A stretch of 52,515 nt of DNA from a virus (lineage: Duplodnaviria; Heunggongvirae; Uroviricota; Caudoviricetes). Below, one piece after another: positions 759 to 19,698 of the stretch. The notes below the pieces were generated by a model that worked only from the letters and a program-made list of their open reading frames with translations, did no database searches and was not told where the DNA came from. The first letter of the stretch is position 1, and each line of letters starts with the position of its first letter. The DNA is taken from positions 1 to 52,515 of the IMG/VR virus record IMGVR_UViG_2724679237_000006; one strand, 5' to 3'. A program made the position numbers and the translations under genes.

Positions 759-834
759 TCACTTTTAACTGGTTTGTTTTGCGAGCATTATGTGTGTTGT
801 TAACGGTACCTTAGCTAAGTGAGAGCTCCAAAAG

Positions 835-868
835 AAAACCCGCAGTTTTTACGCTGCGGGTTTTCTTG
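835..868 (+). terminator. Rho-independent terminator
   Basis: Stem cccgcag (839-845) / ctgcggg (854-860) followed by ttttcttgttt. Confidence 0.6.
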
Positions 869-949
869 TTTGTGTCCATGGGATAGGGTGCCACTTCGGC
901 CAGCCTTAGCAACCGATTGACGGGGGATTGCTCCCCCGTCGCGGTTTCC

Positions 950-1090
950 TTACTGCTTACACTGTAAGAACGCCGCAAACTCCGCTCCCCAGAAGCTCAT
1001 CCGTATTTCACACAGCGAACCGTGCAGCATCCAGATGATGAGGATTACCGTCACGCAGAACGTGATGGCCATAAGCGATTTTTGCGACAT
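950..1090 (-). CDS. hok: Hok/Gef-family type I toxin (46 aa, below the ORF-track cutoff)
   Basis: Minus-strand translation MSQKSLMAITFCVTVILIIWMLHGSLCEIRMSFWGAEFAAFLQCKQ: hydrophobic TM segment followed by the SLCEIR and E-x-AAF motifs typical of Hok. Hairpin gacggggga-ttg-ctcccccgtc at 919-940 lies just downstream. Confidence 0.65.
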   Translation of the reverse strand: MSQKSLMAITFCVTVILIIWMLHGSLCEIRMSFWGAEFAAFLQCKQ

Positions 1091-1220
1091 AGCGCTTGCT
1101 CCTTTTTTGGGGAGGCGCTAACCTATCACTTGCTAAGGTTAGATGGTCAGGGCCTCGGTTAAACAGAGATGTTTTCCGGGGCCTTTCCACATCCGGCCTT
1201 CGGGTATTCCCTCCAGCCAT
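1008..1220 (-). CDS. mok: mok-like overlapping reading frame (70 codons) spanning the hok start
   Basis: 70-aa ORF in another frame overlapping the 5' part of hok, the same architecture as mok in plasmid R1 hok/sok. Protein sequence itself is not diagnostic. Confidence 0.4.
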   Translation of the reverse strand: MAGGNTRRPDVERPRKTSLFNRGPDHLTLASDRLAPPQKRSKRYVAKIAYGHHVLRDGNPHHLDAARFAV

Positions 1221-1280
1221 CAGCCGAAAGGCACCCGCGCGTAATCTATCGCTTTTTTGTTACTCCGGCAATTCAGCCTG

Positions 1281-1541
1281 TTAATTCTGAGGTAATGGCA
1301 AACTCATCTGGTTGTTTCCCCTGTGCGAAGCTGGTAGCTCATTCCACGGGATGCCCTCTGAAGAGTGAACGCCGGGGGCGTGTTTCGATGTGAATTTATG
1401 GAAAGCCTCCAGTGTTGAGAAGCATACGCCGCATTCCAGGTTGTTACACTGGTAATATTTTTTCCGTACGGTATCTGAATCATTTTCCGAACGACTGGTG
1501 CGGATTCGGGCAGATGCGCCACAAAGCGGACAACGGAACAT
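1281..1541 (-). CDS. ogr: Ogr-type zinc-finger late-gene transcription activator
   Basis: N-terminus MFRCPLCG...YYQCNNLECGVCF matches the Ogr/Delta C-x2-C...C-x4-C zinc finger. Located just downstream of D as in P2. Confidence 0.75.
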   Translation of the reverse strand: MFRCPLCGASARIRTSRSENDSDTVRKKYYQCNNLECGVCFSTLEAFHKFTSKHAPGVHSSEGIPWNELPASHRGNNQMSLPLPQN

Positions 1542-1583
1542 AGCGACCTCCCTTAACGTGGTGCTGCCGCTATTCTAAGTTGC

Positions 1584-2693
1584 TCACTCTGTTTCTGCTA
1601 TCCATTCCGGGATTTTTGCCTCAAGCTCAAGCTGCGTGGTAAAGCCGCTGTTATCAATGGAGTGCTCGGCTTTTGCAATAATCCAGTCCTGATTATCAAT
1701 CTCGCTTTTAAATCCTGTTACCGTGCCATGCATTTCGGGGTAGAGTTCTGCGCGTCCACGCGCCAGCGTGATGGAGAATGATGCGGCTCCGCGTTGTAGC
1801 TGCTGCCACTTTGCCGCCGCTGCGCGTCTTGCTGCCTGCTCGTTCTGATAAGTCTTGCGTAACACAAACACGTTGCCTTCCGCACCTTCCATATAGTCAC
1901 CTTCACGGCTGCTGCTTTTCTCCTTTTTGGGTTTTGGCGGTTTGCGGCGTTTCACGCTGACTTTTTTCTTTTTCCCGTAATTAAGATCAAGCCAGTAAGC
2001 GCGTACCCCCGTATACGCCTCGCGGTCAGCAATGCGAAACTGATGGCGATCGCCGCTGCTGCGTGTGATGGCAAACGATGGTAATGGTTTTCCCTGCGCG
2101 TTCACGCCACCACCTGGCATGATGAATAACAGATTACCGCTTTTTACCGTGGTGATTGCGCCCAGCATTTCCGCCATGCGTGTAAGGAAGGACATGTCGC
2201 TTTCTTCGGTCTGGTCAGCGTGGTCGATTTCAATATCCATCAGCATTTCGCTGATTTGCGGTTTCAGGCCGTATCGGTGAGCAATTGCAGACACCACGCG
2301 TTCAACGGTCACATCATGCCAGGATACTTCGCGCTTGACGTTAAATTCATCCCGAAAATCTGCGCTTCTGGCTGAAATGGTCAGTCTGTCGGGCGGTCCT
2401 TCATGAGCAATTTCATCAACAATGTAAGTGCCTTTTTCTGTCAGCGGTTCGCCTTTCCAGCCAATGAGAACCGTCAGGCGAGCGCCCCGTGGCGGCAACT
2501 GCAACTGACCATCAGCATCATCCAGCGTGATGGTTAGCTGGTCTGCTTCAAATCCCCGGTTGTCGGTCAGTGACAGGCTCATCAGGCGTTCTGTCACACC
2601 GGACAGCGTTTTCCCCTCCGCGAGAATATCAAAATCAGGCATCTTCACGGGGTCAGTACTCTGGTTGAACAGTTGCATGGTGGTGTCAATCAT
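1584..2693 (-). CDS. D: Tail protein D (late control gene D)
   Basis: ORF 1584-2825; probable start at internal ATG 2693 preceded by GGGAGGGAG RBS (MIDTTMQLFNQ...). LSLTDNRGFEADQLTITLDDADGQL region typical of gpD. Confidence 0.85.
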   Translation of the reverse strand: MIDTTMQLFNQSTDPVKMPDFDILAEGKTLSGVTERLMSLSLTDNRGFEADQLTITLDDADGQLQLPPRGARLTVLIGWKGEPLTEKGTYIVDEIAHEGPPDRLTISARSADFRDEFNVKREVSWHDVTVERVVSAIAHRYGLKPQISEMLMDIEIDHADQTEESDMSFLTRMAEMLGAITTVKSGNLLFIMPGGGVNAQGKPLPSFAITRSSGDRHQFRIADREAYTGVRAYWLDLNYGKKKKVSVKRRKPPKPKKEKSSSREGDYMEGAEGNVFVLRKTYQNEQAARRAAAAKWQQLQRGAASFSITLARGRAELYPEMHGTVTGFKSEIDNQDWIIAKAEHSIDNSGFTTQLELEAKIPEWIAETE

Positions 2694-2850
2694 CGGCTCC
2701 CTCCCTGTGCAGCATGGTCGCATGTGTGTGCGGGCGGGGTTACTGCTTTTTGTTGTCGCCGGGCGGCAAGAACGGCGCAGGGATGAGATTACGCGCGTGG
2801 TGGGTGATGATTGTTGCCGAATCATTTAACGGATACAAGGGGCTGGAACT

Positions 2851-4035
2851 ATGAGTGAAACTCGCTTTCATGGCGCCCGCGTTACGGAAAGTACCGACCT
2901 GGTAACAGCAATTAACGACGTTGATTCCAGCGTTATCGGTATCGTGGCAACGGCGGACGATGCGGACGCGAAGCTGTTCCCGCTGAACAAGCCTGCATTA
3001 GTGACCCGCGTCAATGACGTGCTGGGAAAATGCGGGACAACGGGGACGCTGTACCGTGCGCTGAAACCCATTGCAGACCAGGTGAGCACAAAGGTGATCG
3101 TCGTTCGCGTGGCTGAACACAAAGAAGAAGACGGAAAAACACAGGATCAACTGGTTATCGGTGGTTCTGAATCCGACGGCAGCTATACGGGGATGTATGC
3201 GCTGCTTGTTGCAGAGCAGGATGAAAGCATCGGATACCGTCCGCGTATTCTGGCCGCGCCGGGGCTGGACACGGAGGCGGTGACAAAATCCCTGTGCGTG
3301 ATTGCAGGTAAACTGCGCGCGTTTGTGTATGCCTCCTGTCATGGCTGTAACACGATGGCTGAAGCCATTGCATACCGTGAAAAATTCAACGAACGCGAGC
3401 TGATGCTCCTGTGGCCGGACTTCATCGCTTACAACCCGAAAAGTGGCGAGAATGAGGTTTTCCCCGCGCCAGCCTATGCGTGCGGCCTTCGTGCGTACAT
3501 TGACCATGAGCAGGGCTGGCACAAATCGCTGTCCAACGTTCCGGTCAAAAATGTGCTGGGGATGTCCAGGCATGTGTTCTGGTCGTTGCAGGCCGAAGAC
3601 AGCGATGCCAACAGCCTCAACAACAAAGAAATCACAACCATCATTCGCCGCAACGGGTTCCGCTTCTGGGGTAACCGTACGCCGGAAACGAACGCCTACA
3701 TTTTTGAGGTGTATACCCGAATCGCACAGGTGCTGGCTGACACGGTTGCGGAAGCGCAGTTTGAAACCATCGACAGTCCACTGACGCCTGCGAACGTGAA
3801 GGACGTCATCAGTGCCATCAGGGCAAAACTGGATTCGCTGGTTACTGCCGGGAAACTGATTGGCGCATCGTGCTGGTATGACATCGTGGATAACAGCACC
3901 ACAGAATTACGACAGGGGCGCGTGCGTATTCGCTATAAATATACGCCCGTTCCTCCGCTGGAAGATATGGAGCTTTACCAGGCGTTCACTGATGAGTTCT
4001 TTGGTCCTGCATTTGCAGTGCTTGGAGGTGCTTAA
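2851..4035 (+). CDS. FI: Tail sheath protein FI
   Basis: 394 aa; strong similarity to P2 FI as recalled (FPLNKP, KLRAF, RELM..WPDF, EQGWHK.LSNV, IRRDGFRFWGNRT, YTPVPPLE). Confidence 0.9.
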   Translation: MSETRFHGARVTESTDLVTAINDVDSSVIGIVATADDADAKLFPLNKPALVTRVNDVLGKCGTTGTLYRALKPIADQVSTKVIVVRVAEHKEEDGKTQDQLVIGGSESDGSYTGMYALLVAEQDESIGYRPRILAAPGLDTEAVTKSLCVIAGKLRAFVYASCHGCNTMAEAIAYREKFNERELMLLWPDFIAYNPKSGENEVFPAPAYACGLRAYIDHEQGWHKSLSNVPVKNVLGMSRHVFWSLQAEDSDANSLNNKEITTIIRRNGFRFWGNRTPETNAYIFEVYTRIAQVLADTVAEAQFETIDSPLTPANVKDVISAIRAKLDSLVTAGKLIGASCWYDIVDNSTTELRQGRVRIRYKYTPVPPLEDMELYQAFTDEFFGPAFAVLGGA

Positions 4036-4547
4036 TGGCCGTACCAAAACATCTTCGTTTTTTTACGCTGTTTGTGGATGGTGAAAATGAAGTGGGTAAG
4101 GTGACGTCTGTCACCCCGCCTAAACTGACGCGTAAAACCGACAGCTATCGTGGTGGTGGCATGCTGGGAGCGGTGAGTATCGACCTCGGCCTGGACGATT
4201 CCGCGCTTGATGCGAGTTTTGTCATGGGGGGCGCCGTTCGTGCGCTGTTCCTTAAATATGGCGGAACAATGGACGGCACGCTGCTGCGTTTTGCGGGTGA
4301 ATACTACACCGATGCAGAAAGCGACCTGTATGAAATCGAGATGCGCGGGCGTGTGACGGAAATTGATATGGGGGAGGCCAAACAGGGCGAAGCCACGTCA
4401 CACACTTACGCTGTCAAAAACACCTACTACAAGCTGAGTATTAACGATCGTCCGGTGTGGGAAATTGACCTGGTGAACCACATCTACCGGAAGGATGGCA
4501 AGGACATTGTACCCGACCGCATCCGTTCCGCGCTCGGGCTCGGCTGA
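4035..4547 (+). CDS. FII: Tail tube protein FII
   Basis: 170 aa immediately after FI (ATG overlaps the FI stop); size and position match P2 FII. Confidence 0.85.
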   Translation: MAVPKHLRFFTLFVDGENEVGKVTSVTPPKLTRKTDSYRGGGMLGAVSIDLGLDDSALDASFVMGGAVRALFLKYGGTMDGTLLRFAGEYYTDAESDLYEIEMRGRVTEIDMGEAKQGEATSHTYAVKNTYYKLSINDRPVWEIDLVNHIYRKDGKDIVPDRIRSALGLG

Positions 4548-4601
4548 TATGTAATATGCAGGCGGCGCAGTGCGTCGCCCCTGACTGAAAGGAGTTTTCT
4601 G

Positions 4602-4970
4602 ATGAAAGAGACGAAAAATACCGATACTGAAAACGCTGTGGTGGTTGCTGATACTGCGAAAGAAACCGGCGAGCGCGGCGTAAAACTTACCCAGCCAATT
4701 GAGCGAGGCGACGAAAAAATCACGTATGTGGAGATTACCGGGGCTATTGAGCAGGCTGGATCCCTGCGTGGTCTGTCGCTGTCTGATGTGCTGAGTCTGA
4801 AAGCGGAATCCATGTTTACGCTGTTGTCACGCGTGACATCACCGCGACTGGATGAAGTGACGATCAAAAAAATGGCATCCCGTGACTTTATTCAGTTATG
4901 TGTGGTTGCCGTAAATTTTTTGAGCGGTGCGGACTCTGGCGGGAAGAACGAACAGGCGACGGAAGCCTGA
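4602..4970 (+). CDS. E: Tail assembly chaperone E (zero-frame product)
   Basis: Small ORF between FII and tape measure; contains the slippery site at 4915-4921. Confidence 0.7.
   Translation: MKETKNTDTENAVVVADTAKETGERGVKLTQPIERGDEKITYVEITGAIEQAGSLRGLSLSDVLSLKAESMFTLLSRVTSPRLDEVTIKKMASRDFIQLCVVAVNFLSGADSGGKNEQATEA
4915..4921 (+). other. Programmed -1 ribosomal frameshift site (TTTTTTG) giving the E+E' fusion, ending at 5134
   Basis: TTTTTTG heptamer inside E; the -1 frame ORF 4898-5134 continues past the E stop, as in P2 E/E'. Confidence 0.7.
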
Positions 4971-5084
4971 TCACGGTTGTGTGCTTTGAGCACATAGAAG
5001 ACTTTGTGGCAGATATTGCCGTTATTTTTAACTGGTCGCCCGCCGAAATCTTCATGATGACGCCCGGCGAAGTGGTTAGCTGGC

Positions 5085-7922
5085 GTGAGCGGGCGGCACT
5101 TCGCAGTGGGAATGCAGACGATGAAGACTCTTGACATTCGGGTCGCCTTCAGTGCTGTTGACAGGCTGACCCGGCCAGCCGAAAACGCCCGCCGCCTGAT
5201 GGGACAGCTTGGTGACTCCATCCAGCGAACGCAGGGGGCGATCAAAAATCTCGAGCGTCAGGCGCGTTCATTTGAGCGCGCCCGCGATGCTGTCAGTAAA
5301 GCGGATGCTGGCATCGTGAAAGCACGACGCCAGCTTAACGCCCTTCATCAGTTACAACGCACGGGTACGGTGCTCAGCGAAAAACAACAAAAGCTGATGC
5401 AGCAGTTAAGCACCCGGCTTGAACGCCTGAATGAATCGCGCACACGGGAAATTCAGAAAATGCGGGAGCTTGGCGGAGAGCTTAAACGCCACGGTATTTC
5501 CCTGACAGGCAGCGATAACACCATCCAGCAGGCCATCAGACGCACCGAACAGTACAACAACCAGCTTGAACTCGAACGACAGGCGCTTGCGCGTGTAACG
5601 CGGGCGCGTGAGCAGTATTCACGCGCGCAGGAAACAGCGGGAAAACTGAAAACGGGTGGTGCGCTGGCAACTGGTGCGGCAGCGGCTGGCGGCTATGCTG
5701 CCGGGCGTTTTTTGCAGCCCGCTATCGGATTCGGGAAAGAGATGTCCCGTGTGCAGGCGCTGACGCGAATTGACCAGAACAGCCCGCAGTTTAAGGCGCT
5801 GCGTGAGCAGGCGCTAAAGCTCGGCTCTGAAACGCAGTTTACTGCGAGTGATGCCGCCAGTGGGCAGGCATTTCTTGCTATGGCTGGCTTCACACCAGAA
5901 GCCATTCAGGCTGCGCTTCCCGGCGTGCTGAGCATGGCAACGGCTGGCGGTATGGACCTTGGCGAGACGGCGGATATTGGCTCAAATATCCTGACGCAGT
6001 TCGGCCTCTCTGCTGACCAGATGGATCGGGTCGGCGACACACTTACTGCGGCGTTTACCCGTACTAACACCGACCTTCGCGCGCTGGGCGAAACCATGAA
6101 ATATGCAGGTCCGGTGGCGGGTAAGCTGGGAATATCGCTGGAGCAGGCCGCAGCGATGGCGGGCGTGCTGGCGAATATGGGTATCAGAGGGAGTGATGCC
6201 GGGACGGCAATGCGTGCCAGCCTTGCTCGTCTGGCATCACCGCCAAAGGCGGCGGCAGAGGCGCTGAAAGAGCTTGGTGTGGCTGTCTCTGATGCGAACG
6301 GCAAAATGCGCCCGATGGAGGATGTGCTGGCCGACCTTTATAAAGCCACCCGCAAATACGGGGAAGTTGACCGGGTATCGTTCTTTAAGGACATAGCCGG
6401 AGAAGAGGCCTTCACGTCATTTATGGCCCTCGTTGATGCGGCAGGTGACGGTTCCTTACCTAAACTGAGAAAAGAACTTGAAGGCGCGCGCGGTGAGGCT
6501 GAACGCACAGCAAAGGTTATGGCCAACAACCTTGACGGCGATCTGAAATCACTCGACAGTGCATGGGAAGGGTTGCGCATCCGCATTGCAGATCTGATTG
6601 ACGGTCCGCTGCGTTCTGTCACGCAGTGGCTCACGCGGGTGGTATCAAGGGTGACGGCGCTGGCGCAGGCCCATCCGGTACTGACGCGCCAGCTACTGAT
6701 AGCAGGCGGTGCGTTGCTGGCAATGACTGCAACGGTTGGCTCGTTGTCGCTGGCTATTGGTGTGCTTGCTGGCCCGCTGGCAAAACTGCGTCTTGGCTTT
6801 TCCCTCCTGACCGGTTCAATGAATGCTGTCAGGGTCCTGCCAGCACTATGGGGAATGGTGACGGGTTCCGTCTCTTTACTGGGAGGTGCTATCGGGGCGT
6901 TGTTCAGCCCGGTCGGTCTTATCGTAGCTGCGCTTGCCGGAGCTGCCGTTCTCATCTGGAAATACTGGGACCCAATCAGGGCATTTTTTGCCGGGGTGTT
7001 CAGCGGGATTATGGAGCGGCTGGCCCCGTTACGCGAAACCTTTGAACGGTTTGGCCCTGTTTTCGAACTGGTTCGTGATGGCGTGATTCAGGTCTTTAAC
7101 TGGTTTACATCGCTGCTGTCACCGATGGAATCCAGCAAGGAAACGCTGGATAAATGCACCAGTGCTGGCGAGGTATTCGGCAACGTTCTTGGCGGTGCGT
7201 TACAGCTTGTCCTGACGCCTGCCAAAATGCTGCTGGATACGCTGGCATGGATACTTGAAAAACTTGGTGTCCTTCCAGATGAAGCGGAAAGGGCGAGAAA
7301 GAAAATCGAAGACGCGCAGCGTGCGGCCATTCTTCAGGACAAGGTTGCTTTGCTTCAGGGGGACCTGGCAAAAATCAATCCGCCGAAGTCTGCGGAAACA
7401 GGGACCGGAGGCGATAAGCCTAAAGACAATAAGCCGCTCACGGACAACAACACTGGCACGCTACGCAGGCTCAGCAAAATTGCAGATAATACGGGCAAGC
7501 TGGTTGATGAGACGAAAAAGCGTATCGGCCCCGGTGATATTGTCTTTAAGAACCTGCCCCGTGCGCTTGCTGTTCGTGGGGAGTGGCAGGAGCGAAAGGT
7601 TGCGCAGAGCAACAAGGCTCTTCCTGCAATCAATATCACTCCCGCGCCCCCGGCTCCGTTATCTCCGGCGCTGCCCCCTGTTGTTGCAGCAAGCTCCCGT
7701 CCGGTCGTGGAGGCCGCACGTGCGCCAGTTGCGCCCGTTTCCGCATCTTCCCGCAGCCGGGAGGCTGCGACCCCCGGATTTGGTGGTGAAATTCATGTCC
7801 ATCTGCATAACGTTGTTACGCAGAATCCCCGCGAACTGGCGAAACTGGTCGGCGAAATGGTCAGGGCAGAACTGGAGCGGCGTACCCGTGCCGGGCGTGG
7901 CAGTTTTTACGATAAAGATTGA
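5085..7922 (+). CDS. T: Tail tape measure protein T
   Basis: 945 aa; coiled-coil N-terminus, Ala/Gly-rich hydrophobic central segments; position between E/E' and U. Confidence 0.85.
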   Translation: MSGRHFAVGMQTMKTLDIRVAFSAVDRLTRPAENARRLMGQLGDSIQRTQGAIKNLERQARSFERARDAVSKADAGIVKARRQLNALHQLQRTGTVLSEKQQKLMQQLSTRLERLNESRTREIQKMRELGGELKRHGISLTGSDNTIQQAIRRTEQYNNQLELERQALARVTRAREQYSRAQETAGKLKTGGALATGAAAAGGYAAGRFLQPAIGFGKEMSRVQALTRIDQNSPQFKALREQALKLGSETQFTASDAASGQAFLAMAGFTPEAIQAALPGVLSMATAGGMDLGETADIGSNILTQFGLSADQMDRVGDTLTAAFTRTNTDLRALGETMKYAGPVAGKLGISLEQAAAMAGVLANMGIRGSDAGTAMRASLARLASPPKAAAEALKELGVAVSDANGKMRPMEDVLADLYKATRKYGEVDRVSFFKDIAGEEAFTSFMALVDAAGDGSLPKLRKELEGARGEAERTAKVMANNLDGDLKSLDSAWEGLRIRIADLIDGPLRSVTQWLTRVVSRVTALAQAHPVLTRQLLIAGGALLAMTATVGSLSLAIGVLAGPLAKLRLGFSLLTGSMNAVRVLPALWGMVTGSVSLLGGAIGALFSPVGLIVAALAGAAVLIWKYWDPIRAFFAGVFSGIMERLAPLRETFERFGPVFELVRDGVIQVFNWFTSLLSPMESSKETLDKCTSAGEVFGNVLGGALQLVLTPAKMLLDTLAWILEKLGVLPDEAERARKKIEDAQRAAILQDKVALLQGDLAKINPPKSAETGTGGDKPKDNKPLTDNNTGTLRRLSKIADNTGKLVDETKKRIGPGDIVFKNLPRALAVRGEWQERKVAQSNKALPAINITPAPPAPLSPALPPVVAASSRPVVEAARAPVAPVSASSRSREAATPGFGGEIHVHLHNVVTQNPRELAKLVGEMVRAELERRTRAGRGSFYDKD

Positions 7923-7928
7923 GGAGTC

Positions 7929-8423
7929 ATGGCCATGATGATGATCTACGGCATGTTTGTTTTTGAGCTGCGCACGTTGCCGCATCAGCAGTTACAGCAA
8001 AACAAAAGCTGGCGACATGTGAAAAACGAGCGCGTTAACCGTTCCGCAAGCTGGCAGTATATCGGTGCAGGTGATGATCGCATCGTTCTTTCCGGCGTGC
8101 TTTATCCTGAGATTACAGGCGGCGAAGTGTCGCTGTCGCTGCTGACCACGCAGGCGTATATGGGGCGCCCGTGGCCTCTGATTGATGGCGTCGGGCAGAT
8201 TTACGGCATGTATGTTCTGACCGAAACGAGCACGACCCGCTCTGAACTGGATCGCTACGGGAAAGCGAAAAAGATAGAGTTTTCCCTGACCCTTGAACGC
8301 TGTGATGAGGATTTGCGGGAACGCCTGCAATCCTCATCGTTCAGCGATATGCTGTCCGGCCTTAAAGATAAGGTAACATCATCCCTTAACAATGCAGTCA
8401 GCTCAGTTAAAGGGCTGTTCTGA
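7929..8423 (+). CDS. U: Tail protein U
   Basis: 164 aa following T; position and size consistent with P2 gpU. Confidence 0.75.
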   Translation: MAMMMIYGMFVFELRTLPHQQLQQNKSWRHVKNERVNRSASWQYIGAGDDRIVLSGVLYPEITGGEVSLSLLTTQAYMGRPWPLIDGVGQIYGMYVLTETSTTRSELDRYGKAKKIEFSLTLERCDEDLRERLQSSSFSDMLSGLKDKVTSSLNNAVSSVKGLF

Positions 8424-8431
8424 TTTAATGC

Positions 8432-8464
8432 AAAACCGCTAATGATCAGATTAGCGGTTTTTTG
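8432..8464. terminator. Bidirectional rho-independent terminator between convergent U and invertase genes
   Basis: Stem ccgctaat (8436-8443) / attagcgg (8450-8457), loop gatcag, flanked by A-run upstream and T-run downstream. Confidence 0.7.
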
Positions 8465-9069
8465 TTTCCTCTGGTCTTCTCAGTTGTCCCGGTTGATTCT
8501 CCCACGGGGTGGTAACGATAAATCGTCGATATACCAACGCCGTAAATTATGGCCAGTTGTTTTCTGTCATGGCCGTTTTTAATCAGCCTTGCTATTTGCT
8601 CATGTTGCTCTTTTGTCAGTTTCGGACGACGCCCACCAATGCGCCCCTGTGCGCGGGCTGCTGCCAGTCCTGCCCTGGTACGTTCAACTATCAGTTCGCG
8701 TTCCATTTCAGCTAAAGCCCCCATGACGTGAAAAAAGAAGCGCCCCATGGGTGTTGATGTGTCAATGCTGTCCGTCAGACTACGAAAATTGACACCTTTT
8801 TCCCGTAATTCCTCAATCAGTGTGATCAGGTGTTTCATGCTTCTGCCCAGCCTGTCCAGTTTCCAGACAACGAGCGTATCGCCTTCTGACAGTGTTCTGA
8901 GCAGTTTTTTCAATCCCGGTCTGGCTGACTTTGTTCCGCTGATTTTATCTTCAAAAATCAGTTCACATCCTGCGCTATTGAGCGCATTGCGTTGCAAATC
9001 CGTGTTCTGGTCATTTGTTGACACGCGTACATAGCCAATCAGCACATTGAATCTCCCGCTCAAAAGCAC
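8446..9069 (-). CDS. Serine recombinase, DNA invertase of the Hin/Gin/Cin/Pin family
   Basis: LIGYVRVSTNDQNTDLQRNAL...VVWKLDRLGRSMKHLI...MGALAEMERELI..RT.AGLAAAR motifs match Pin/Gin closely; active-site Ser in YVRVSTNDQ. True start may be the GTG at 9045. Confidence 0.9.
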   Translation of the reverse strand: MLLSGRFNVLIGYVRVSTNDQNTDLQRNALNSAGCELIFEDKISGTKSARPGLKKLLRTLSEGDTLVVWKLDRLGRSMKHLITLIEELREKGVNFRSLTDSIDTSTPMGRFFFHVMGALAEMERELIVERTRAGLAAARAQGRIGGRRPKLTKEQHEQIARLIKNGHDRKQLAIIYGVGISTIYRYHPVGESTGTTEKTRGNKKPLI

Positions 9070-10037
9070 AAATCATGCCATGTGGGCCAGAAACGACCAT
9101 TATCAAAACCGGTGGGCTTACTTTTGAATACGACTCAATCCTTGCCTGGATTCGGAATTCTGACTGGGCGAAGATTGGATTTAAAAATGATGCCGATGGT
9201 GACACTGATTCATTCATGTGGTTTGAAACGGGAGATAACGGCAATGAATATTTCAAATGGAGAAGCAAACAAAGCACAACAACAAAAGACCTGATGACGC
9301 TGAAATGGGATGCGCTAAATATTCTTGTTAATGCCATTGTAAATGGCGAAGTCATATCAAAATCAGCAAACGGCCTTCGTATTGCTTATGGTAATTACGG
9401 ATTCTTTATTCGTAATGATGGTTCAAACACATACTTCATGTTGACAAACTCCGGTGACAACATGGGGACTTATAACGGATTAAGGCCATTATGGATTAAT
9501 AACGCTACTGGCGCTGTTTCGATGGGGCGTGGCCTTAATGTTTCAGGGGAGACGCTTTCAGACCGTTTTGCTATTAACAGCAGTAATGGTATGTGGATTC
9601 AGATGCGCGATAACAACGCTATCTTTGGGAAAAATATAGTTAACACTGGTAGCGCTCAGGCGTTGCTTCGCCAGAATCACGCTGACCGCAAGTTCATGAT
9701 AGGTGGACTGGGGAACAAGCAATTTGGCATCTACATGATTAATAACTCAAGGACAGCCAATGGTACTGACGGTCAGGCGTATATGGACAATAACGGGAAC
9801 TGGCTTTGTGGTTCACAAATTATTCCCGGAAATTATGGAAATTTTGATTCCCGCTATGTGCGTGACGTTCGCATGGGAGCTAACCAGAGCGGAATAAAAT
9901 GGGGTGGCGAAGGTGGAACACTCCCTGCGGGGTATGTTCTTACAGGTGGTAACTTTGATGACGACTGGGAGTGGCCTGTCTATGCGCCTGTTCAGAAATA
10001 TATTAATGGTCAGTGGTACAATGTAGGACGTGCTTAA
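9051..10037 (+). CDS. Alternative (currently unfused) tail-fibre C-terminal variable domain
   Basis: Open frame starts right after a stop at 9048-9050, lacks a conserved N-terminus, and ends [11 protein letters not shown], paralleling the expressed H C-terminus INGTWYNAGSI. Confidence 0.7.
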
Positions 10038-10566
10038 TATGCAGCATTTAAAAAATATTAAAGCAGGAAATCCAAAAACTATCGAACAGTATCAACTTAC
10101 AAAAGAATTTGATGTTGTCTGGTTATGGTCGGAAGAAGGTAAGAACTGGTATGAGGAACAAAAAAACTTCCAGCCAGACACGTTAAAAGTGGCATATAAC
10201 CAGGAGGGTATTATTTGCTGCATAGAGAAAGACGCATCCCTGATTAATCCAGAGGGAATGAGTGTTATTGAGTTACCCAATATTACGGTAAACCGACGCG
10301 CTGATATTTCCGGCAACTGGATGATTAAGGATGGTGCTGTAATTAAAAGAGTCTATACAGAAGATGAATTACAACAGCAGGCTGAATCACAAAAAGCAGC
10401 TTTGCTTTCCGAAGCTGAATCAGTCATCCGGCTGCTGGAACGTGCCGTCAGGATGAATCTGGCAACAGATGAGGAACGTACACGGCTGGATGGCTGGGAA
10501 CGCTACAGCGTTCTGCTCAGCCGCGTGGATACGGCAAATCCTGAATGGCCACAAAAGCCTGAATAA
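10030..10566 (+). CDS. Alternative tail-fibre assembly protein
   Basis: 178 aa; N-terminus [21 protein letters not shown] almost identical to the oppositely oriented assembly protein at 10593-11126, C-terminus diverged. Confidence 0.8.
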
Positions 10567-10592
10567 AAAATAAGGCCCGAACGGGCCTTCTC

Positions 10593-11126
10593 TCATTCTG
10601 GTTGTTCGGGGAACGTGACTGGCAGGACGGAGGTATCCGTAGACTCTACTTTCTGCGCGTAGAGCAGCCACTCGGTCAATTTTTGTTTATTCTCAGCAGA
10701 AATAATTCCAAGTCGTAGCTGAGAATCCCATAGCTGAGTTTTATCCCTGACGAGTTGTAACAGGTTTTGCTTCTCATTTTCCGCCTGTTGTCTCTGTTCT
10801 TCTTCGGTATATTCCCGCTTTATCACTGCGCCATCTTTGAACATCCAGTTACCAGAAATATCGACCCGCCTATTGGCTGTAATATCAGGAACCTCAACAA
10901 CGCTTAAACCTTCGGGATTAATTGTCGATACATCCTTATCTACAGCCACAATGATTCCATCGGCAGTGTAAGCAAATTTTATTGTATCTTCCTGAAAGTT
11001 TTTCTGTTCCTCATACCAGTTTTTATCGTCATCAGAATACAACCAGACAACGCCAAATTGTCGTGTTAATTTATATTGTTCTACGGTTTTGGGGTTTCCT
11101 GCTTTAATATTTTTTAAATGCATCAT
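10593..11126 (-). CDS. G: Tail-fibre assembly protein (expressed orientation)
   Basis: 177 aa directly downstream of H on the same strand. Confidence 0.8.
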   Translation of the reverse strand: MMHLKNIKAGNPKTVEQYKLTRQFGVVWLYSDDDKNWYEEQKNFQEDTIKFAYTADGIIVAVDKDVSTINPEGLSVVEVPDITANRRVDISGNWMFKDGAVIKREYTEEEQRQQAENEKQNLLQLVRDKTQLWDSQLRLGIISAENKQKLTEWLLYAQKVESTDTSVLPVTFPEQPE

Positions 11127-11128
11127 AA

Positions 11129-13357
11129 TTAAATACTTCCCGCATTATACCAGGTGCCATTGATACAATATTGCACTGGCCTTGCCTGTGTTGTATCAAT
11201 AAGTTCATCTTTGTTTGAGTTAACGGAACCTGTAACAACGTAACCAGATTTATCGCCCCAGCCAGGACCATTCCATGTTTGCGCTGATGATTTTGTACCT
11301 AATCGAATACCTGTAATAAATTGTGAATTACATTCCGCTTTAGTATATGCCCCAACATCTGCTGCTGAAGGTTTTCGGGTTGTGGTGTAAAACTCTGACC
11401 AGTCAGCCTCGAAGCCATAACCATCACGCGCTGAACGATAATAAATACCACCGTTCTTATAATTTACGCGGAACTGTACAGCAGGGCAGCTACCCGCGTT
11501 CATATTGAAGTGGAGGATTAATGTCGATGCGCCACCAATATTTGCGTTATATACCCCGCTATTCCAGTTCCAGCCAACAGCTTTATCATTTCCGACAGTG
11601 CTTCCTGTTTGCCCTAAAGCAAAAGCGGCCTGCTGATTTTTCGTGTTGTAGTCACGTCGCCAGCCAGGTAAATACTCTGAACCGTGGTTAATATATATAA
11701 ATTGCGCATTAGTGGTGCCACCACTGCTAGAGGTACTCGGTGTGGTTATACGAATGGTCATGGCGCCTTTATTGCCCATAACTTCAATAACGCAACCCGC
11801 AAGGTGAATAAGTCCACATCCGGTGTCAGTAATAATTTTATTATTGCCGTATGACCATGAGCATTTACACAGCCAGTATGGATGATTGAAGGCCCACTGA
11901 GATTCCAGCCATTCAATAAATTGCGCCGTCGTCCAGTTTCCTGCACCTGTGCTAATAGAACCATGAAAAGAGCGGCAAGCACCTATTGTTTGCGTAAATT
12001 TATCTTTGTTTGGAATATCTGCGCCGTTCTGGTCTTTCTGCAATGCGCCAGCGGCCTGATTTACCGTTTCCTGCAAACCGAGGTATTCGATAACGGCGGC
12101 AACGGTCGCTTTAGCCAGAATATCCCGCCCGACTTTTGTCAGAGTTGCCAGGCTGGCGGTGTCATTCCCTGTAAAATACGGAAACCTGTCTGCCGCAGTA
12201 GCAAGCCCAGCCAGCGCCGTCAGGGTGGCGTCTTTCGGCTGCTTGCCCGCAAGCGCGTTGGTCATAGTAGTCGCAAAGTTCGGGTCATTGCCCAATGCCG
12301 CAGCCAGCTCGTTCAGCGTATTCAGTGCGTCAGGTGATGAGTCTACAAGTGCGGCAATCGCGGCCATAACGAACGCCGTGTTTGCTATCTGAGTATTGTT
12401 AGTACCCTTTGGCGCAGTTGGTGCGGTTGGCGTTCCGGTGAGTGCCGGACTCGACAGCGGCGCTTTCTTGTTCGTTTCATCCATTACCGCCTTAACAGCT
12501 TTTGGCGTCGCAGCCAGCGTTTCAGACGGGCTGTTGGTTGCACTACTGAGCTGGACAAGGCCTTTTCGCGCTGTGGTGGCGTCCTGTGCAGTATATTTCC
12601 CGTTAGCAAGGTCATAGGCGGCCTTTACCGCTTTCGGCGTTGCCGCCATCATTTCAGACACGCTGTTAGTGGCGCTACTGAGCTGGACAAGGCCTTTTTG
12701 CTCTGTGGTGGCATCCTGTGCGGTATATTTCCTGTTAGCAAGGTCATATGCAGCCTTTACCGCTTTCGGCGTTGCGGCCAGTGCTTCAGACGTGCTGTTG
12801 GTCGCACTGCTTAACTGAGTAAAGCCTTTTGCGGTCAGCGAGGCATCCGGGTGACGTCGTGACTGTTCATGCTCTTTTAGTTTGTCATCCACGTAATCCA
12901 CCGTGGCCATCACCATGGTGTTATCCACGGTAAGCGCCACGGTGGCCGTGCTGGATACGGTCAGGATGGTGCGAAATGTTTGCGCACGCCCGGACCCTTC
13001 GGCAACGGCTGGCTTGTAACTTTCGGCAGTATTTCCCACCGCGATTAAATCGCCGTGCTCATCAAACACACCAATTTCCCGGATCCAGAATCCGCCCGTT
13101 TCTGGAGGAATAACCAGCTCCGCAATAATGCGGTTCTGATGTGTTGCGTCCAGGAAGACGCGATTAACGGTATGTCGCCACACCTCATGCACAAGACGGG
13201 TCTGCTTACTGTCTGGCGTGGGTAAAGTACCGCCGCCGTCACCCACGGCCATATGTGTCAGGCGGACGGGTTTGCCATCTGGTGCGGCTGCCTGTGCTAA
13301 TTTTTTTGCACCCGTATCAGTGATAACGGTTTTAAATTTTCGTGTTGTGGTACTCAT
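11129..13357 (-). CDS. H: Tail fibre protein H
   Basis: 742 aa; N-terminus (KFKTVITDTGAKKLA...HMAVGDGGG...HEVWRH...IAELVIPPE.GGFW.RE.G) matches P2 H as recalled. Confidence 0.85.
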   Translation of the reverse strand: MSTTTRKFKTVITDTGAKKLAQAAAPDGKPVRLTHMAVGDGGGTLPTPDSKQTRLVHEVWRHTVNRVFLDATHQNRIIAELVIPPETGGFWIREIGVFDEHGDLIAVGNTAESYKPAVAEGSGRAQTFRTILTVSSTATVALTVDNTMVMATVDYVDDKLKEHEQSRRHPDASLTAKGFTQLSSATNSTSEALAATPKAVKAAYDLANRKYTAQDATTEQKGLVQLSSATNSVSEMMAATPKAVKAAYDLANGKYTAQDATTARKGLVQLSSATNSPSETLAATPKAVKAVMDETNKKAPLSSPALTGTPTAPTAPKGTNNTQIANTAFVMAAIAALVDSSPDALNTLNELAAALGNDPNFATTMTNALAGKQPKDATLTALAGLATAADRFPYFTGNDTASLATLTKVGRDILAKATVAAVIEYLGLQETVNQAAGALQKDQNGADIPNKDKFTQTIGACRSFHGSISTGAGNWTTAQFIEWLESQWAFNHPYWLCKCSWSYGNNKIITDTGCGLIHLAGCVIEVMGNKGAMTIRITTPSTSSSGGTTNAQFIYINHGSEYLPGWRRDYNTKNQQAAFALGQTGSTVGNDKAVGWNWNSGVYNANIGGASTLILHFNMNAGSCPAVQFRVNYKNGGIYYRSARDGYGFEADWSEFYTTTRKPSAADVGAYTKAECNSQFITGIRLGTKSSAQTWNGPGWGDKSGYVVTGSVNSNKDELIDTTQARPVQYCINGTWYNAGSI
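12440..12850 (-). repeat. Tandem in-frame repeats (about 132 bp / 44 aa, 2-3 copies) inside H
   Basis: Peptide unit KG(L/F)(V/T)QLSSATNS.SE..AATPKAVKAAYDLAN.KYTAQDATT repeated; corresponding DNA repeats are visible. Confidence 0.7.
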
Positions 13358-13359
13358 GC

Positions 13360-13890
13360 TTAATCGCCTGGATAAATGGTGATAACTTCACCGTCATAAG
13401 TTGCCGCCGCTGCGAAAATATCCCCCGGGATTTCCTGAATGATATTCAGTCCTGTCATGTGGCGGCTGACCGGGCGGGCATCAGCAATCAACCGCTCCAT
13501 TTCCAGATACATTTCCTCCGTCACACCGCTGTCCAGCGTGCCGACTTCAACGGTAAATGTTCCCGGTTCTCCGCCGAACTCCCACCACTCAGACACGCGA
13601 ATGAGGTATCCCAGCGGCTCAATGGCCCGGCGCAGTGCGCTGATGGTCCCCTTGTGTCGGTGTATCAGCCACGCATCGCGAATCACCTGGCGCTTTGTTT
13701 CCTCCGGCCAGTTGCGGTCCCAGCGGTCAACGGAAAACGCCCAGGCGAGATAAGGCAGCAGATGCACCGGGCATGTGTCCGGCGACCACAGCGTGTTGAG
13801 GTCTACCGGAATGTCTGTAATGCGCGTTCCGACGGCTTCGGCACAACGCATGAAATTGCTGGCTGATGGTGGTAACAGTGAATTACTCAT
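13360..13890 (-). CDS. I: Baseplate protein I
   Basis: Matches P2 gpI as recalled (LWNPDTCP..LLP.LAWAFSVDRWD, IRDA...H.KGTI.A.RR..EPLGYLI.V.EWWE, MERLIADA.P.SRH). Start assumed at MSNSLL (13890). Confidence 0.85.
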   Translation of the reverse strand: MSNSLLPPSASNFMRCAEAVGTRITDIPVDLNTLWSPDTCPVHLLPYLAWAFSVDRWDRNWPEETKRQVIRDAWLIHRHKGTISALRRAIEPLGYLIRVSEWWEFGGEPGTFTVEVGTLDSGVTEEMYLEMERLIADARPVSRHMTGLNIIQEIPGDIFAAAATYDGEVITIYPGD

Positions 13891-14779
13891 TGCGCCCACC
13901 TTCGCTGATGGTGAATGACTCACAACGCGCCGCCTGTATGTCGCTGATGGCTATATTCTGGGTGGGTTCGATTATCTCCACGCGTTGCACGCCGTGCACA
14001 TGAAGTGCGGCAGCAATGGCTGACAGCGCCACGTCCTGACCGATAAGTCCCTGCTCAGACAGCCACTTCCTGAACGACGATTCCGCAGCGGCCAGAATAG
14101 GTTCGGATTCCGGGCCGGGGTAAAAGTACAGTTTTGCATTCAGCCGCCATGTCACGATTCTGGCGCTCTGTACGGTCAGGCGGTCTGCCACCGGGCGGGT
14201 ATCCTCTGCATTCAGAACGGCGCGAACGGTATTAAGCAACGCCTCCGTTGCCGTGCCGTCGCCTTCAGTGGACAGGATGGAAACCGTCACATTTGCCGGA
14301 GACGGACTGATAGCCCGCGCATCACGCACCAGACCGCTGGCGCTGCGGGCAAAATACTCGTATGCACCTGACGGGCCAGCAACACTCAGGCCGTCGTACG
14401 CCCGCTGCGCCCGCAGTCTCAGCGAGGTGTCGCTCTCCATCACCGCGTCGGTGGTATCCGTTGCCGGAGTGATAACCAGGCGCTTTGTGTTCATATTGCC
14501 CGCGAGGTTGTCCAGGTTTGTCCCTGAACCGTGGCTTAACATGCAGGCGCGTGCGCCCTCGTTAACCCGCTGGCGTAACAGCATTTCACGAAACGACATG
14601 GTTTGAGCGATAACGTTCAGGGGTTCTGATTCCAGCTCCAGCGCGGCGGAAACGGCTTCACGCTGTTCGGCGGGATAAGCCGCAATCATCATGGCCTTTG
14701 TGTCAGCCAGAATTGCCTCAAAATCAGGCTCCGCGATGATGGCGGGTTCCGGTAACTGTGAAAGGTCAACGGCAGGCAT
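13883..14779 (-). CDS. J: Baseplate assembly protein J
   Basis: 298 aa between W and I in P2 order. Confidence 0.8.
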   Translation of the reverse strand: MPAVDLSQLPEPAIIAEPDFEAILADTKAMMIAAYPAEQREAVSAALELESEPLNVIAQTMSFREMLLRQRVNEGARACMLSHGSGTNLDNLAGNMNTKRLVITPATDTTDAVMESDTSLRLRAQRAYDGLSVAGPSGAYEYFARSASGLVRDARAISPSPANVTVSILSTEGDGTATEALLNTVRAVLNAEDTRPVADRLTVQSARIVTWRLNAKLYFYPGPESEPILAAAESSFRKWLSEQGLIGQDVALSAIAAALHVHGVQRVEIIEPTQNIAISDIQAARCESFTISEGGRNE

Positions 14780-14782
14780 GAT

Positions 14783-15133
14783 TTACTCCCTCAGCGTGAT
14801 GGTTAATTCAACATTCTGCATGGTCTGAATGACAGTACCCGATAGTGTCACCCCGGCGCGGCCTCCCGCCTTCCAGACAACATCAATGGCGCTCAGGGCA
14901 ATGCGTGGCTCCCATCGTGTCAGTGCAATCACAGCAGCGCTCATGCATTGCAGACGCGTGGTGTTATTCATGGGTTCGTCAATCAAATCAGGGACAAGAC
15001 TGCCATATTCCCGTCGCATAACCCGGCTTGCCAGCGGGGTGGTCAGGATGTCCCTGACTGACTGTTTCAGGTGCTCCATATCGTTCAGGTTTCCCGTCCC
15101 GTCCGGGTTCATTCCTGTGTAGCGGGTTGTCAC
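14783..15133 (-). CDS. W: Baseplate protein W (gp25-like)
   Basis: 116 aa; position between V and J. Confidence 0.75.
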   Translation of the reverse strand: MTTRYTGMNPDGTGNLNDMEHLKQSVRDILTTPLASRVMRREYGSLVPDLIDEPMNNTTRLQCMSAAVIALTRWEPRIALSAIDVVWKAGGRAGVTLSGTVIQTMQNVELTITLRE

Positions 15134-15711
15134 TGCGGTCCTCCTGTCGAATCGCTGCCACCTTTAACGCCACCGTGTTTATGCGTATGCACAGTGATGC
15201 CGTTTGAGGTGAAATTGCCGCCGCTGTGCGTGATATTGCCGCTCATCTTTCCCCCTTTTGTGACGTCAATCTCGGCTGTTTTCAGTAGGTTTGTGCACTC
15301 CACGACAGGTGTGTCCAGTTTCACGCTGACGGATGCCTGCAGGGTGGCCGTTTGCACGCCGCTGGCGCTCAGTGCGCCTGCGTCCGCGTCGTAGCAGAAC
15401 ACCGCGCCATCCGGCGCGCTGACCACGATTTCTTTCAGGCTTTTTCCGGGGGCCGGAATGTCATCGCTCCACAGGCTGCCAATTATCATGGCTGTTTCCG
15501 GGTTGCCGCCGATGCAGGCAATTGCCACCTGTTCGCCCACTGATGGCGGCAGCCACACATTGAAGGCTCCCGCGCGCGTGGTGTTCCAGCGCAACCAGCC
15601 TGTTTCCAGTCCGCCGCTGAGGACCCGCACGCACCAGGATTTCTCATCAATTTCAGAGATGATCCCGGTGCGGATGATATTGCTCAGCAGTCTCATAAGT
15701 TCTGCGTTCAC
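15130..15711 (-). CDS. V: Baseplate spike protein V
   Basis: 193 aa; N-terminus MNAELMRLLSNIIRTGIISEID typical of gpV. Confidence 0.8.
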   Translation of the reverse strand: MNAELMRLLSNIIRTGIISEIDEKSWCVRVLSGGLETGWLRWNTTRAGAFNVWLPPSVGEQVAIACIGGNPETAMIIGSLWSDDIPAPGKSLKEIVVSAPDGAVFCYDADAGALSASGVQTATLQASVSVKLDTPVVECTNLLKTAEIDVTKGGKMSGNITHSGGNFTSNGITVHTHKHGGVKGGSDSTGGPQ

Positions 15712-16343
15712 TGTACTGCCTCCGCAATCCGGCCCAGCACCGTGTTATAAATCAGGCGCTCATCCGCCTGACTGATACCCAGCAGCTCACGTACCGGATA
15801 ATTGGTGAAAATACCCGGCGCAACCTGATCGCGTTCACCGAACTGATGAACGCGTGCAATACGTGCGGCCACGCCGCTGTAACCCACTGTCACACCGGAG
15901 GCATCCGCGCGGGCTTTCAGGTAACGGGCGGTGCGCAGTTTTACGAACATGGGGACGTGCTTTGTGCTGTCCTGGTTGATACGTCGGGTGCGTATTTCCA
16001 GAAAACGGTCGATGTCATCCCGGTAAAACGTGCGGATATTGTTTTTATCCTCATCCCACCCGGTAATGGTTCGCCCGTATTTCCCTGTGTCGTGATGCCA
16101 GTTTTTCAGCGTGCGTGTTTCGTTATTCCAGATAAAGCGAATGCGCTCCTGTATCCGGGTTACGCGGCGTCTGCGTGGTGTCCATGCGGTCCCGTCCGGC
16201 GCTTTCTGTGACCGGATACGTGCCTGCTGGGCGCGGCGTAAATCCTGTGCCAGCTTTCTGGCGATGTTATTGATGGCCTGCTGATTCAGGCTGTCGCGGA
16301 TAGCCTCGAAGGTTTCATCCGCGCGGGTGAATGCCTTATCCAT
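15708..16343 (-). CDS. Tail completion / virion morphogenesis protein (S-like)
   Basis: 211 aa at the S position between R and V; larger than P2 S. Confidence 0.6.
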   Translation of the reverse strand: MDKAFTRADETFEAIRDSLNQQAINNIARKLAQDLRRAQQARIRSQKAPDGTAWTPRRRRVTRIQERIRFIWNNETRTLKNWHHDTGKYGRTITGWDEDKNNIRTFYRDDIDRFLEIRTRRINQDSTKHVPMFVKLRTARYLKARADASGVTVGYSGVAARIARVHQFGERDQVAPGIFTNYPVRELLGISQADERLIYNTVLGRIAEAVQ

Positions 16344-16803
16344 CGCTTTCGCCCCACGTCACATCCTGGAATACATGTGACCAGTCGCCTTCGGAAGATG
16401 GCAGGCGGGGTTTTGGCTCCGGCAGGTGTTCTGCCTGTGGTGTGCCCTGACTGCTGCGCGTGACGCGAACGCGCTCCCGCAGGGGCAGTGTAAACAGGAT
16501 GTCGGCGCTGTCATCGTCATTAATAACGGCAGAAAATTTGATGTCCTGATTACGCTCAGGGTTGAGCAACAACTGCGGCTGATTCTCCGACAACCACGCC
16601 AGCAGCGGCAGAGTCAGGTCGTCCAGCTCCCCGGCGTAATCCATGACAAACATCACCATCTGATAGCGGTAAGCAAACGAGGGAGTTTCTCCGGTCGTTT
16701 CAATGTTGCCGCTCTCCACGAAAATGGTGAATTTCTCCGGGTTGGCGTGACACCATCGACATGAACGGGTCATGGCTTCACGCAGGGAATCAGTTTTCAG
16801 CAT
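16336..16803 (-). CDS. R: Tail completion protein R
   Basis: 155 aa directly after the lysis cassette, as in P2. Confidence 0.7.
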   Translation of the reverse strand: MLKTDSLREAMTRSCRWCHANPEKFTIFVESGNIETTGETPSFAYRYQMVMFVMDYAGELDDLTLPLLAWLSENQPQLLLNPERNQDIKFSAVINDDDSADILFTLPLRERVRVTRSSQGTPQAEHLPEPKPRLPSSEGDWSHVFQDVTWGESDG

Positions 16804-17110
16804 GGCTGTTGTCCTCGTTGTTCAGTCGTTGCAGTCTGCGCTGCTCCAGTAATTCAATGGCCCGTTTATCCGCGTTACAGGTTTCCAGTGCATCCAGAAG
16901 GCGGTCGCCCCATATACCGAGATTTCCCCATGTGGGAGTGTCAGGGAAGGGGGGAGGCGTTACCGGTATGGTCAGCGTCTGCGGTATAAGCCGGACTGAC
17001 GGCGCTGGCCGTGGCGCGTTCTGCGTGCCTGCGCAACCTGTCAGTAAAACGAGCGTCAGGCAAAGCGTGGGCGCATTCATCTTTTGCAATATCGTTGCGT
17101 AGCTGTTCAC
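16790..17110 (-). CDS. Outer-membrane spanin lipoprotein (LysC/Rz1-like)
   Basis: N-terminus has a lipobox (LLTGCAG), Pro-rich body; gene overlaps the 3' part of the i-spanin gene in another frame. Confidence 0.6.
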   Translation of the reverse strand: MNSYATILQKMNAPTLCLTLVLLTGCAGTQNAPRPAPSVRLIPQTLTIPVTPPPFPDTPTWGNLGIWGDRLLDALETCNADKRAIELLEQRRLQRLNNEDNSHAEN

Positions 17111-17348
17111 GTCTGGCCTCTCCGTCCTGATTTCGCTGTTGATTTTCCACGCGGAGTTGCGCCAGCACCTGCTGCATATCCTGTACCCCGGTGCTGATGA
17201 TATTCAGGGTGTCGACGGTGCTTTTCAGGGCGCTGGCCTGCGCTTCGTTTCTGGCGTTCTCCCGGCCCAGCGACCACGACAGACGCATGGATGTTCCCCA
17301 TGCGGCAATCAGAAGGAAAGCGACACCCAGCGTGGGCCAGAGCTTCAT
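16941..17348 (-). CDS. Inner-membrane spanin (LysB/Rz-like)
   Basis: Start MKLWPTLGVAFLLIAAW (TM helix) then coiled-coil; its ATG overlaps the endolysin stop (ATGA at 17345-17348). Confidence 0.6.
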   Translation of the reverse strand: MKLWPTLGVAFLLIAAWGTSMRLSWSLGRENARNEAQASALKSTVDTLNIISTGVQDMQQVLAQLRVENQQRNQDGEARREQLRNDIAKDECAHALPDARFTDRLRRHAERATASAVSPAYTADADHTGNASPLP

Positions 17349-18057: not shown

Positions 18058-18059
18058 CG

Positions 18060-18266
18060 CTACTCTCCCCACAACTGAATCATTTCTCGTTTCTTCTTCT
18101 CCGGCTCCGGCATCTCCACTTCCTGCCCGGCGTTCAGAAATACCTGCTGACAGAGTCCTGGGTTGGCATCCAGCACCTTTTCGGTGACGCCCTGCGTCAT
18201 GCCGTAGTAGCGGAAACAGAGCGAATCCACGGTGTCGCCTGCCAGTGCCTTCACTTTCATCAGCAC
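18060..18266 (-). CDS. X: Tail protein X (LysM-like)
   Basis: 68 aa; ALAGDTVDSLCFRYYG...VLDANPGL matches P2 gpX pattern. Confidence 0.8.
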   Translation of the reverse strand: MLMKVKALAGDTVDSLCFRYYGMTQGVTEKVLDANPGLCQQVFLNAGQEVEMPEPEKKKREMIQLWGE

Positions 18267-19653: not shown

Positions 19654-19698
19654 TTTTTCTCTCCGTTACAGGCGGGCATGATGCCCGCCGTGAGTTGA

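Follow-up and report, generated by a model that had tools for sequence, protein, structure and literature searches.

The viral DNA of IMG/VR record IMGVR_UViG_2724679237_000006 raises the question of why the tail genes FI, FII, E, T and U of a P2-like element are encoded on the opposite strand to D, and how D is then transcribed. The whole stretch analysed, hereafter referred to as the window, comprises positions 1 to 52,515 (52,515 nucleotides) of that record. Homologues of all six P2-like (Peduoviridae) proteins gpFI, FII, E, T, U and D were identified through PHROG and Pfam matches, and the P2 order FI-FII-E-T-U-D on one strand was absent, with FI through U located on the plus strand and D on the minus strand. 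A first-pass annotation had put forward three explanations for this layout, namely a genuine lineage rearrangement, a large inversion or an assembly artefact. Our analyses indicate that the inverted FI-U block is almost certainly an old, fixed rearrangement that is normal for its lineage, being neither an artefact nor a switch. The gene order of a P88-like lineage, combined with two transcription units that share one activator box, is very likely the best explanation of the locus as a whole.

Genes were called from the open reading frame (ORF) layout together with PHROGs and Pfam family assignments, and the region in question is composed of the following features:

1281-1541, minus strand: ogr, an Ogr/Delta zinc-finger late activator of 86 amino acids (CX2C-X24-CX4C; Pfam PF04606 Ogr_Delta, 2.4e-14)
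1584-2693, minus strand: D, encoding the tail/baseplate hub protein gpD (PHROG 52, 7e-166; Pfam Phage_GPD)
2694-2850, no strand assigned: FI-D divergent control region, a 157-bp spacer
2851-4035, plus strand: FI, encoding the tail sheath gpFI (PHROG 23, 2.5e-123)
4035-4547, plus strand: FII, encoding the tail tube gpFII (PHROG 55, 4e-58)
4602-4970 for E, with E' extending to 5134, plus strand: gpE and the E/E' frameshift product (PHROG 103; Pfam Phage_P2_GpE for 4979-5134)
5085 or 5121 to 7922, plus strand: T, encoding the tape measure gpT (PHROG 28, 1.5e-215)
7929-8423, plus strand: U, encoding gpU (Pfam Phage_P2_GpU, 1.4e-38)
8432-8461, no strand assigned: bidirectional intrinsic terminator with a 12-bp stem between an A-run and a T-run (-16.4 kcal/mol, z = -3.7)
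8446-9045, minus strand: Gin/Cin/Pin-type serine DNA invertase gene (Pfam Resolvase and HTH_7; PHROG 125)

Both the family assignments and the ORF layout bore out the earlier observations that FI-FII-E-T-U (2851-8423) lies on the plus strand and D on the minus strand, and that FI and D diverge from the 157-bp region at 2694-2850. The statement that U and D are co-directional in P2 was also correct, as P2 carries FI-FII-E-T-U-D-ogr on one strand. The further statement that the other late genes all lie on the minus strand held for most of them, including those beyond H, though not for P and Q (21766-24563, plus strand), whose orientation relative to O is the same as in P2; the silent tail-fibre cassette at 9075-10566 is likewise on the plus strand, so this generalisation needs correcting. 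The ORF formerly taken as ogr (1304-1522, minus strand) is a GTG-initiated frame of 72 amino acids without a Pfam or PHROG match; it lies in the wrong frame, the real ogr occupying 1281-1541 on the same strand.

Some of these gene boundaries required comparison with annotated relatives. The D frame is open to 2825, and its start was placed at 2693 from homology and from the annotation of phage P88, the gpD of which is 97% identical to that of the window and starts at the equivalent ATG. The likely start of T is 5121, following the RefSeq annotation of Escherichia coli RM9088, and the RM9088 homologue of FII is labelled ‘major tail tube’ in RefSeq, as opposed to the ‘head closure’ label of PHROGs. 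A slippery heptamer for -1 frameshifting, T TTT TTG, is present in the E frame at 4916-4922 and the -1 frame remains open to 5134, hence the programmed E/E' frameshift is predicted to be retained in the window. The terminator at 8432-8461 is common to the convergent U and invertase genes.

A blastn comparison with P88 (Xuanwuvirus) returned a single match of 8295 bp at 91.4% identity for window positions 830-9110, which passed through both junctions and spanned ogr-D-FI through U-invertase without a breakpoint, and the RefSeq annotation of P88 displays identical gene order and strands. A misassembly at approximately 2.7-2.85 kb and 8.43-8.46 kb, to which only the difference from P2 would point, is so improbable as to be negligible, given that an independently sequenced phage aligns without interruption over the 8.3 kb containing both junctions, and that the D-FI junction also occurs in more than 1300 complete genomes and several phage isolates. 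The proposed assembly artefact was therefore rejected.

Of the 5426 complete E. coli genomes surveyed for the layout, 1356 carried an intact match to a 1-kb probe covering the D-FI junction, and in 228 at least 80% of a 10-kb query was collinear. A synthetic P2-type junction, in which the 3' end of U is joined to the 5' end of D, was found in none of the 1388 E. coli genomes carrying these genes. A large, recent inversion was discarded on the strength of these counts and of the 8295-bp match to P88.

Loci surrounding gpD relatives were then collected from IMG/VR and, at one genome per species, from GTDB, and classified by tblastn, with the clade defined by a gpD at least 64% identical to that of the window. 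In all 127 classifiable clade loci, U-T-E-FII-FI was carried on the opposite strand to D with FI facing D, and in 125 of 133 loci D was followed by ogr in the same orientation. [quoted passage not shown] Two loci came from Firmicutes-labelled contigs, one of Vagococcus sp. WN89Y (L084) and the other of a Planococcaceae metagenome-assembled genome (L125), with gpD 96-99% identical to that of the window; these prophages are most likely the result of contamination or mislabelling of those assemblies.

Phage records fell on either side of a discontinuity in gpD identity, with 49 reaching at least 60% and 480 lying below that value, and among the records listed there were none between 63.6% (SEN4) and 52%. 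Spot checks above the gap were all inverted, namely P88, SEN4 (Senquatrovirus, 64%) and Kp4871-3 (Reginaelenavirus, 74%), and those below it (gpD 50-53%) were all collinear, namely P2, Kapieceevirus, Gegevirus and Arsenicumvirus. The inverted FI-U block, alongside which D and ogr have retained the direction of the remaining late genes, is thus a synapomorphy of a clade to which at least Xuanwuvirus, Senquatrovirus and Reginaelenavirus belong, and of the three original explanations it was the genuine lineage rearrangement that stood, as the fixed, derived state of a whole P2-like clade. As close relatives share the arrangement as their normal state, it is not unusual. The P2 order is typical of P2, and evidently does not define the family, in which three ICTV genera are without it. 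A reservation applies to the polarity of the change, for which collinearity was spot-checked in four outgroup genera; the collinear order is otherwise taken to be ancestral from its occurrence in other P2-like phages and in R-type pyocins. P88 and the Citrobacter phage phiSM are both inducible, plaque-forming phages (PMC6456863), and the layout is therefore functional.

The position of the serine invertase gene next to U suggested another possibility, that the FI-U block is a segment flipped by this enzyme and has been captured in one of two states or following a recent inversion. Invertases of the Gin/Cin/Hin/Pin type occasionally use secondary sites, and a weak crossover-site match (17/26) is located at 2690-2715; this score is nonetheless at chance level, with four unrelated sites scoring 17-18 in the same scan of the window. 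Neither inverted repeats flanking the FI-U block nor a pair of inverted crossover sites of approximately 26 bp bordering it were found, the best border matches being 17/26. The U-D junction that a switch would generate is the one missing from all 1388 E. coli genomes, against 1356 with the D-FI junction, and the 127 clade loci are all in the same state. Furthermore, SEN4 and the majority of the distant clade members show this order although no invertase adjoins the block, so the earlier description of an invertase flanking FI-U was accurate as to position, whilst the association itself is incidental. Relative to P88, it is the fibre cassette at 9559-12097 that has been flipped and not FI-U, and among relatives FI-U occurs in one orientation whereas the fibre segment occurs in both. 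An invertase-driven origin of the FI-U orientation is accordingly highly improbable, and the invertase serves the tail-fibre segment rather than the FI-U block.

With the inverted order established as that of the lineage, the transcription of D had to be considered, since the FI-U inversion has cut D off from the F operon and D consequently needs a promoter within the 157-bp spacer. The following elements were recognised there:

2754-2771 (centre 2762.5), no strand assigned: Ogr-type activator box TGT-N12-AGA (TTGTTGT...AGAAC), a single copy in the spacer
2714-2722, minus strand: predicted extended -10 element of pD, TG-c-GACCAT, with a predicted start near 2707
2806-2811, plus strand: predicted -10 element of pF, GATGAT (GATTAT in relatives), with a predicted start near 2818

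A phylogenetic footprint was obtained by aligning 37 distinct FI-D spacers from the clade, which revealed a few conserved islands within otherwise diverged sequence. The N12 spacing of the box was invariant (37/37) and its right half read either ACA or AGA, with approximately half of the relatives carrying TGT-N12-ACA and each FI-D spacer containing one box. The end of the pF hexamer was 48.5 nt from the box centre in every spacer, as was the end of the pD hexamer in 35 of the 37, and the pD extended -10 took the form TG-n-(a)Ann(a)T, of which the TG and the A2 and T6 positions were at least 90% conserved. The box of the window is situated exactly midway between both -10 elements, its centre approximately 55.5 nt from each predicted start (2818, plus strand; 2707, minus strand). 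This geometry could be calibrated on P2, where RefSeq records one activator site for pO and pP with annotated starts at 3127 and 3016; measured from the box centre, the two starts lie at 55.5 nt and the ends of the hexamers GAAACT and TAGCCT at 48.5 nt.

The consensus of the four P2 late promoters is TGT-N12-ACA (PMC3931495). A strict scan of the window for TGT-N12-ACA returned zero late-promoter sites because the boxes of the window read AGA. Exact copies of the extended motif TTGTTGT-N7-CGGCNAGAAC were confined, in P88 as in the window, to the FI-D and O-P spacers, the second copy of the window being:

21684-21701 (centre 21692.5), no strand assigned: second activator box in the O-P divergent spacer, an exact match to the extended motif (21680-21703)

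In the O-P spacer, the distance from the box centre to the end of the element is 48.5 nt for the pP -10 element TAATCT and 49.5 nt for the pO element TGcCATCAT. Both boxes of a given genome carried one and the same half-site variant (AGAAC for the window as well as for P88, CACAAC for Kp4871-3, ACAA for SEN4), which fits a model in which one cognate activator would read both boxes. No third box was found upstream of R or V in the window, and as S and V overlap, the window has no separate V promoter. A near-copy of the motif, TTGTTGTGCCGCAAAGGCCAGA, is located at 21171-21192 (plus strand) in antisense orientation inside O; P88 does not have it, and the match is probably fortuitous. The longest O frame would begin (21644) upstream of where pO is predicted to start (near 21637), and the start equivalent to that of P88 (21611), which is preceded by GAGGGG, is the likelier start of O.

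These comparative data suggest a mechanism in which the inversion would have left the F operon as two separate transcription units, FI-U and D-ogr, that fire divergently from the 157-bp spacer through a single Ogr-binding dyad at 2754-2771. D-ogr would thereby form a late transcription unit of its own, and the FI-U unit would end at the bidirectional terminator common to the convergent invertase gene. With V presumably joined to the O operon through the S/V overlap, the late regulon would comprise four promoters, grouped into two mirror pairs and driven by two boxes. We consider that this shared-box mechanism, including Ogr binding, the start sites and bidirectional activation, probably operates, as judged from conservation across the clade, spacing and the distribution of the motif.

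Several observations weigh against such a mechanism. The promoter model for the lineage draws solely on conservation and geometry, the right half of the window box is AGA rather than ACA, and the pO element of the O-P spacer fits less exactly (49.5 nt). The predicted pD start would leave a leader of only about 14 nt, within which the ribosome-binding site is held. Additionally, a pD with an extended -10 (TG) might work without an activator. This last point leads to the alternative that the gene order is normal for the lineage, with D-ogr nonetheless driven by an activator-independent or differently timed promoter rather than by the shared box. An extended -10 of this type can act without either a -35 element or an activator, and upstream of ogr, the 3' end of D contains a sigma-70-like site (1721-1692). 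The mirror spacing of 48.5 nt, however, has been kept in 35 of 37 diverged sequences and is the geometry of the mapped P2 pP/pO pair, and a GC-rich spacer followed by a -10 element is likewise seen at P2 late promoters, so that separate control of D-ogr appears unlikely. An alternating purine-pyrimidine tract, conserved in the clade, was also observed between the box and the -10 element of pD and pP (2720-2733 and 21725-21733); it reads CGCGCGCG in most relatives and CACACACA at pD of the window, and P2 pP has a GC-rich spacer similar to it.

As to how the inverted order arose, the nearest relatives of FI, FII and U outside the clade were found in the same P2-like genera as those of D, with out-of-clade identities of 45-49% for FI, 42-51% for U and 50-53% for D. 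Because these relatives coincide with those of D and the E/E' frameshift has been kept, an in-situ inversion in the ancestor of the clade is favoured, with one putative breakpoint between U and D and the other upstream of pF. A replacement, whereby the FI-U cassette of another contractile-tail phage was inserted in reverse into the clade ancestor, might be suspected from the lower similarity to P2 of FI, FII, E, T and U (32-46%) than of J, I and D (50-61%). Such a replacement is improbable when the closest outside relatives of FI, FII and U are in the same P2-like genera as those of D at similar identity, the within-block gene order has been kept along with the P2-specific E/E' frameshift, and the type of the pF box agrees with the pP/pO box of the same genome. 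Returning to in-situ inversion, we lean towards the view that a single ancient event marks a deep enterobacterial P2-like clade, and that it may have persisted as the dyad-symmetric pF box could serve the orphaned D-ogr, giving two boxes and four mirror-image promoters.

The layout is carried by about a quarter of complete E. coli genomes, and where P2 is taken as the template, every P88-, SEN4- and Reginaelenavirus-type prophage will be flagged as rearranged. The orientation of FI-U is instead a simple and robust synteny marker that separates the clade from P2/186-type genera, and the mirror-symmetric spacer offers a testable case of a split operon rescued by a symmetric bidirectional activator site. 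RefSeq annotations of phage genomes from three ICTV genera already show the arrangement, which is thus known as data. Neither the inversion nor a shared FI/D promoter is mentioned in publications on P88, phiSM, SEN4 and PP4, and no publication devoted to the inversion was found in the literature on Xuanwuvirus and P2-like gene order, which is a weak negative as subscription journals are thinly covered. The shared FI/D promoter may be unreported, yet it follows directly from the pP/pO paradigm of P2.

Beyond the block, the following genes were located in the window:

950-1090, minus strand: hok/gef toxin gene (Pfam HOK_GEF, 3e-7)
9075-10566, plus strand: silent tail-fibre cassette
10593-11126, minus strand: G
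11129-13357, minus strand: H
21766-24563, plus strand: P and Q

The tail-fibre segment at 9559-12097 is the only part flipped relative to P88, and relatives carry a homologue of the window-type G on either strand; as the P88 match is reversed here and the G homologue occurs on both strands, the invertase flips the fibre segment in this lineage. An intact gix-like crossover site is present at 12068-12093 (23/26 relative to Mu gix). At the invertase-proximal end, within 9046-9125, only the outer half-site is left (TTATCAAAACC, 9100-9110), where relatives have the full site TTATC[T/A]AAAACCTCGGTTT[A/G]CAGGAA and the homology of the window ends at the crossover point. The silent Mu-Sv-like cassette begins approximately 60 bp into the Mu sequence. 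The fibre segment is probably locked in the prophage of the window, perhaps as the result of an aberrant invertase event.

Neither the immunity/integrase end at 31271-34297 (int, 33296-34297) nor the left 830 bp matched P88. No att direct repeats of at least 12 bp were found between 1-1000 and 34.2-36.5 kb, nor any tRNA genes; a related prophage in E. coli RM9088 adjoins ihfA. The hok/gef gene lies directly downstream of ogr, as it does in P88, and the same upstream motif (GTTTAACCGAGG[CT]CCT) recurs at approximately 115-240, where there may be a second, partial hok-like locus. A second prophage region of lambdoid type adjoins the first at 34.5-52 kb of the window and, according to the annotation of matching E. 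coli genomes, carries replicative helicase, Gp157 and YdaT-like genes; isrK and C4 antisense RNA/a1b1 target elements were identified at 46316-46513 (Rfam, E = 1e-15 to 1e-10).

In comparison with known phages, the element is most similar to P88 (Xuanwuvirus P88, Peduoviridae; NC_026014) and Citrobacter phage phiSM, which have identical gene order and strands from ogr through the head genes, DNA identity of 87-93% over window positions 830-31271 and the same 157-bp FI-D spacer with the same box. The blastn matches to P88 (87-93%) cover 830-9110 and 12048-31271, and account for most of the 35.8-kb P88 genome. Differences from P88 include the invertible tail-fibre segment, which is in the opposite orientation with partly different cassettes, and the unmatched immunity/integrase region (31.3-34.3 kb) and left end (1-830). 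The element is thus a new member, at approximately 90% identity, of the known P88-like (Xuanwuvirus-type) lineage in an E. coli chromosomal context. Its identity is at the level of the genus Xuanwuvirus, for which we take the ICTV criterion to be approximately 70%.

More distant members of the clade, Salmonella phage SEN4 and Klebsiella phage Kp4871-3, share the inverted FI-U block, the divergent FI-D pair, the linkage of D with ogr and the single box in the spacer. They differ in gpD (64% and 74% identical to that of the window, respectively), in lacking an invertase next to U and in box half-sites of the ACA type, and SEN4 keeps a separate box upstream of V that the window is without. The G segment of Mu and the C segment of P1 resemble the window in their Sv/U cassettes, which are 84% identical to 9.1-12.1 kb, and in their Gin-like invertase; this system concerns fibre genes only and leaves the orientation of FI-U unexplained.

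The F operon of P2 (FI-FII-E-E'-T-U-D, with ogr downstream) contains the same genes, and has in common with the window the E/E' frameshift, the Ogr/Delta activator and the type of box, although the proteins are only 32-50% identical (tblastn). In P2 the seven genes form one rightward operon in which U overlaps D, whereas in the window FI-U is inverted and D-ogr stands apart. The closest parallel to the FI-D spacer is the pP/pO region of P2, where one dyad box is located between two divergent late genes and the hexamers end 48.5 nt away on both sides; the starts at 55.5 nt are annotated in P2, and those of FI and D in the window are predicted at the same distance. The difference is that in the window this design appears to be used a second time, for FI and D.

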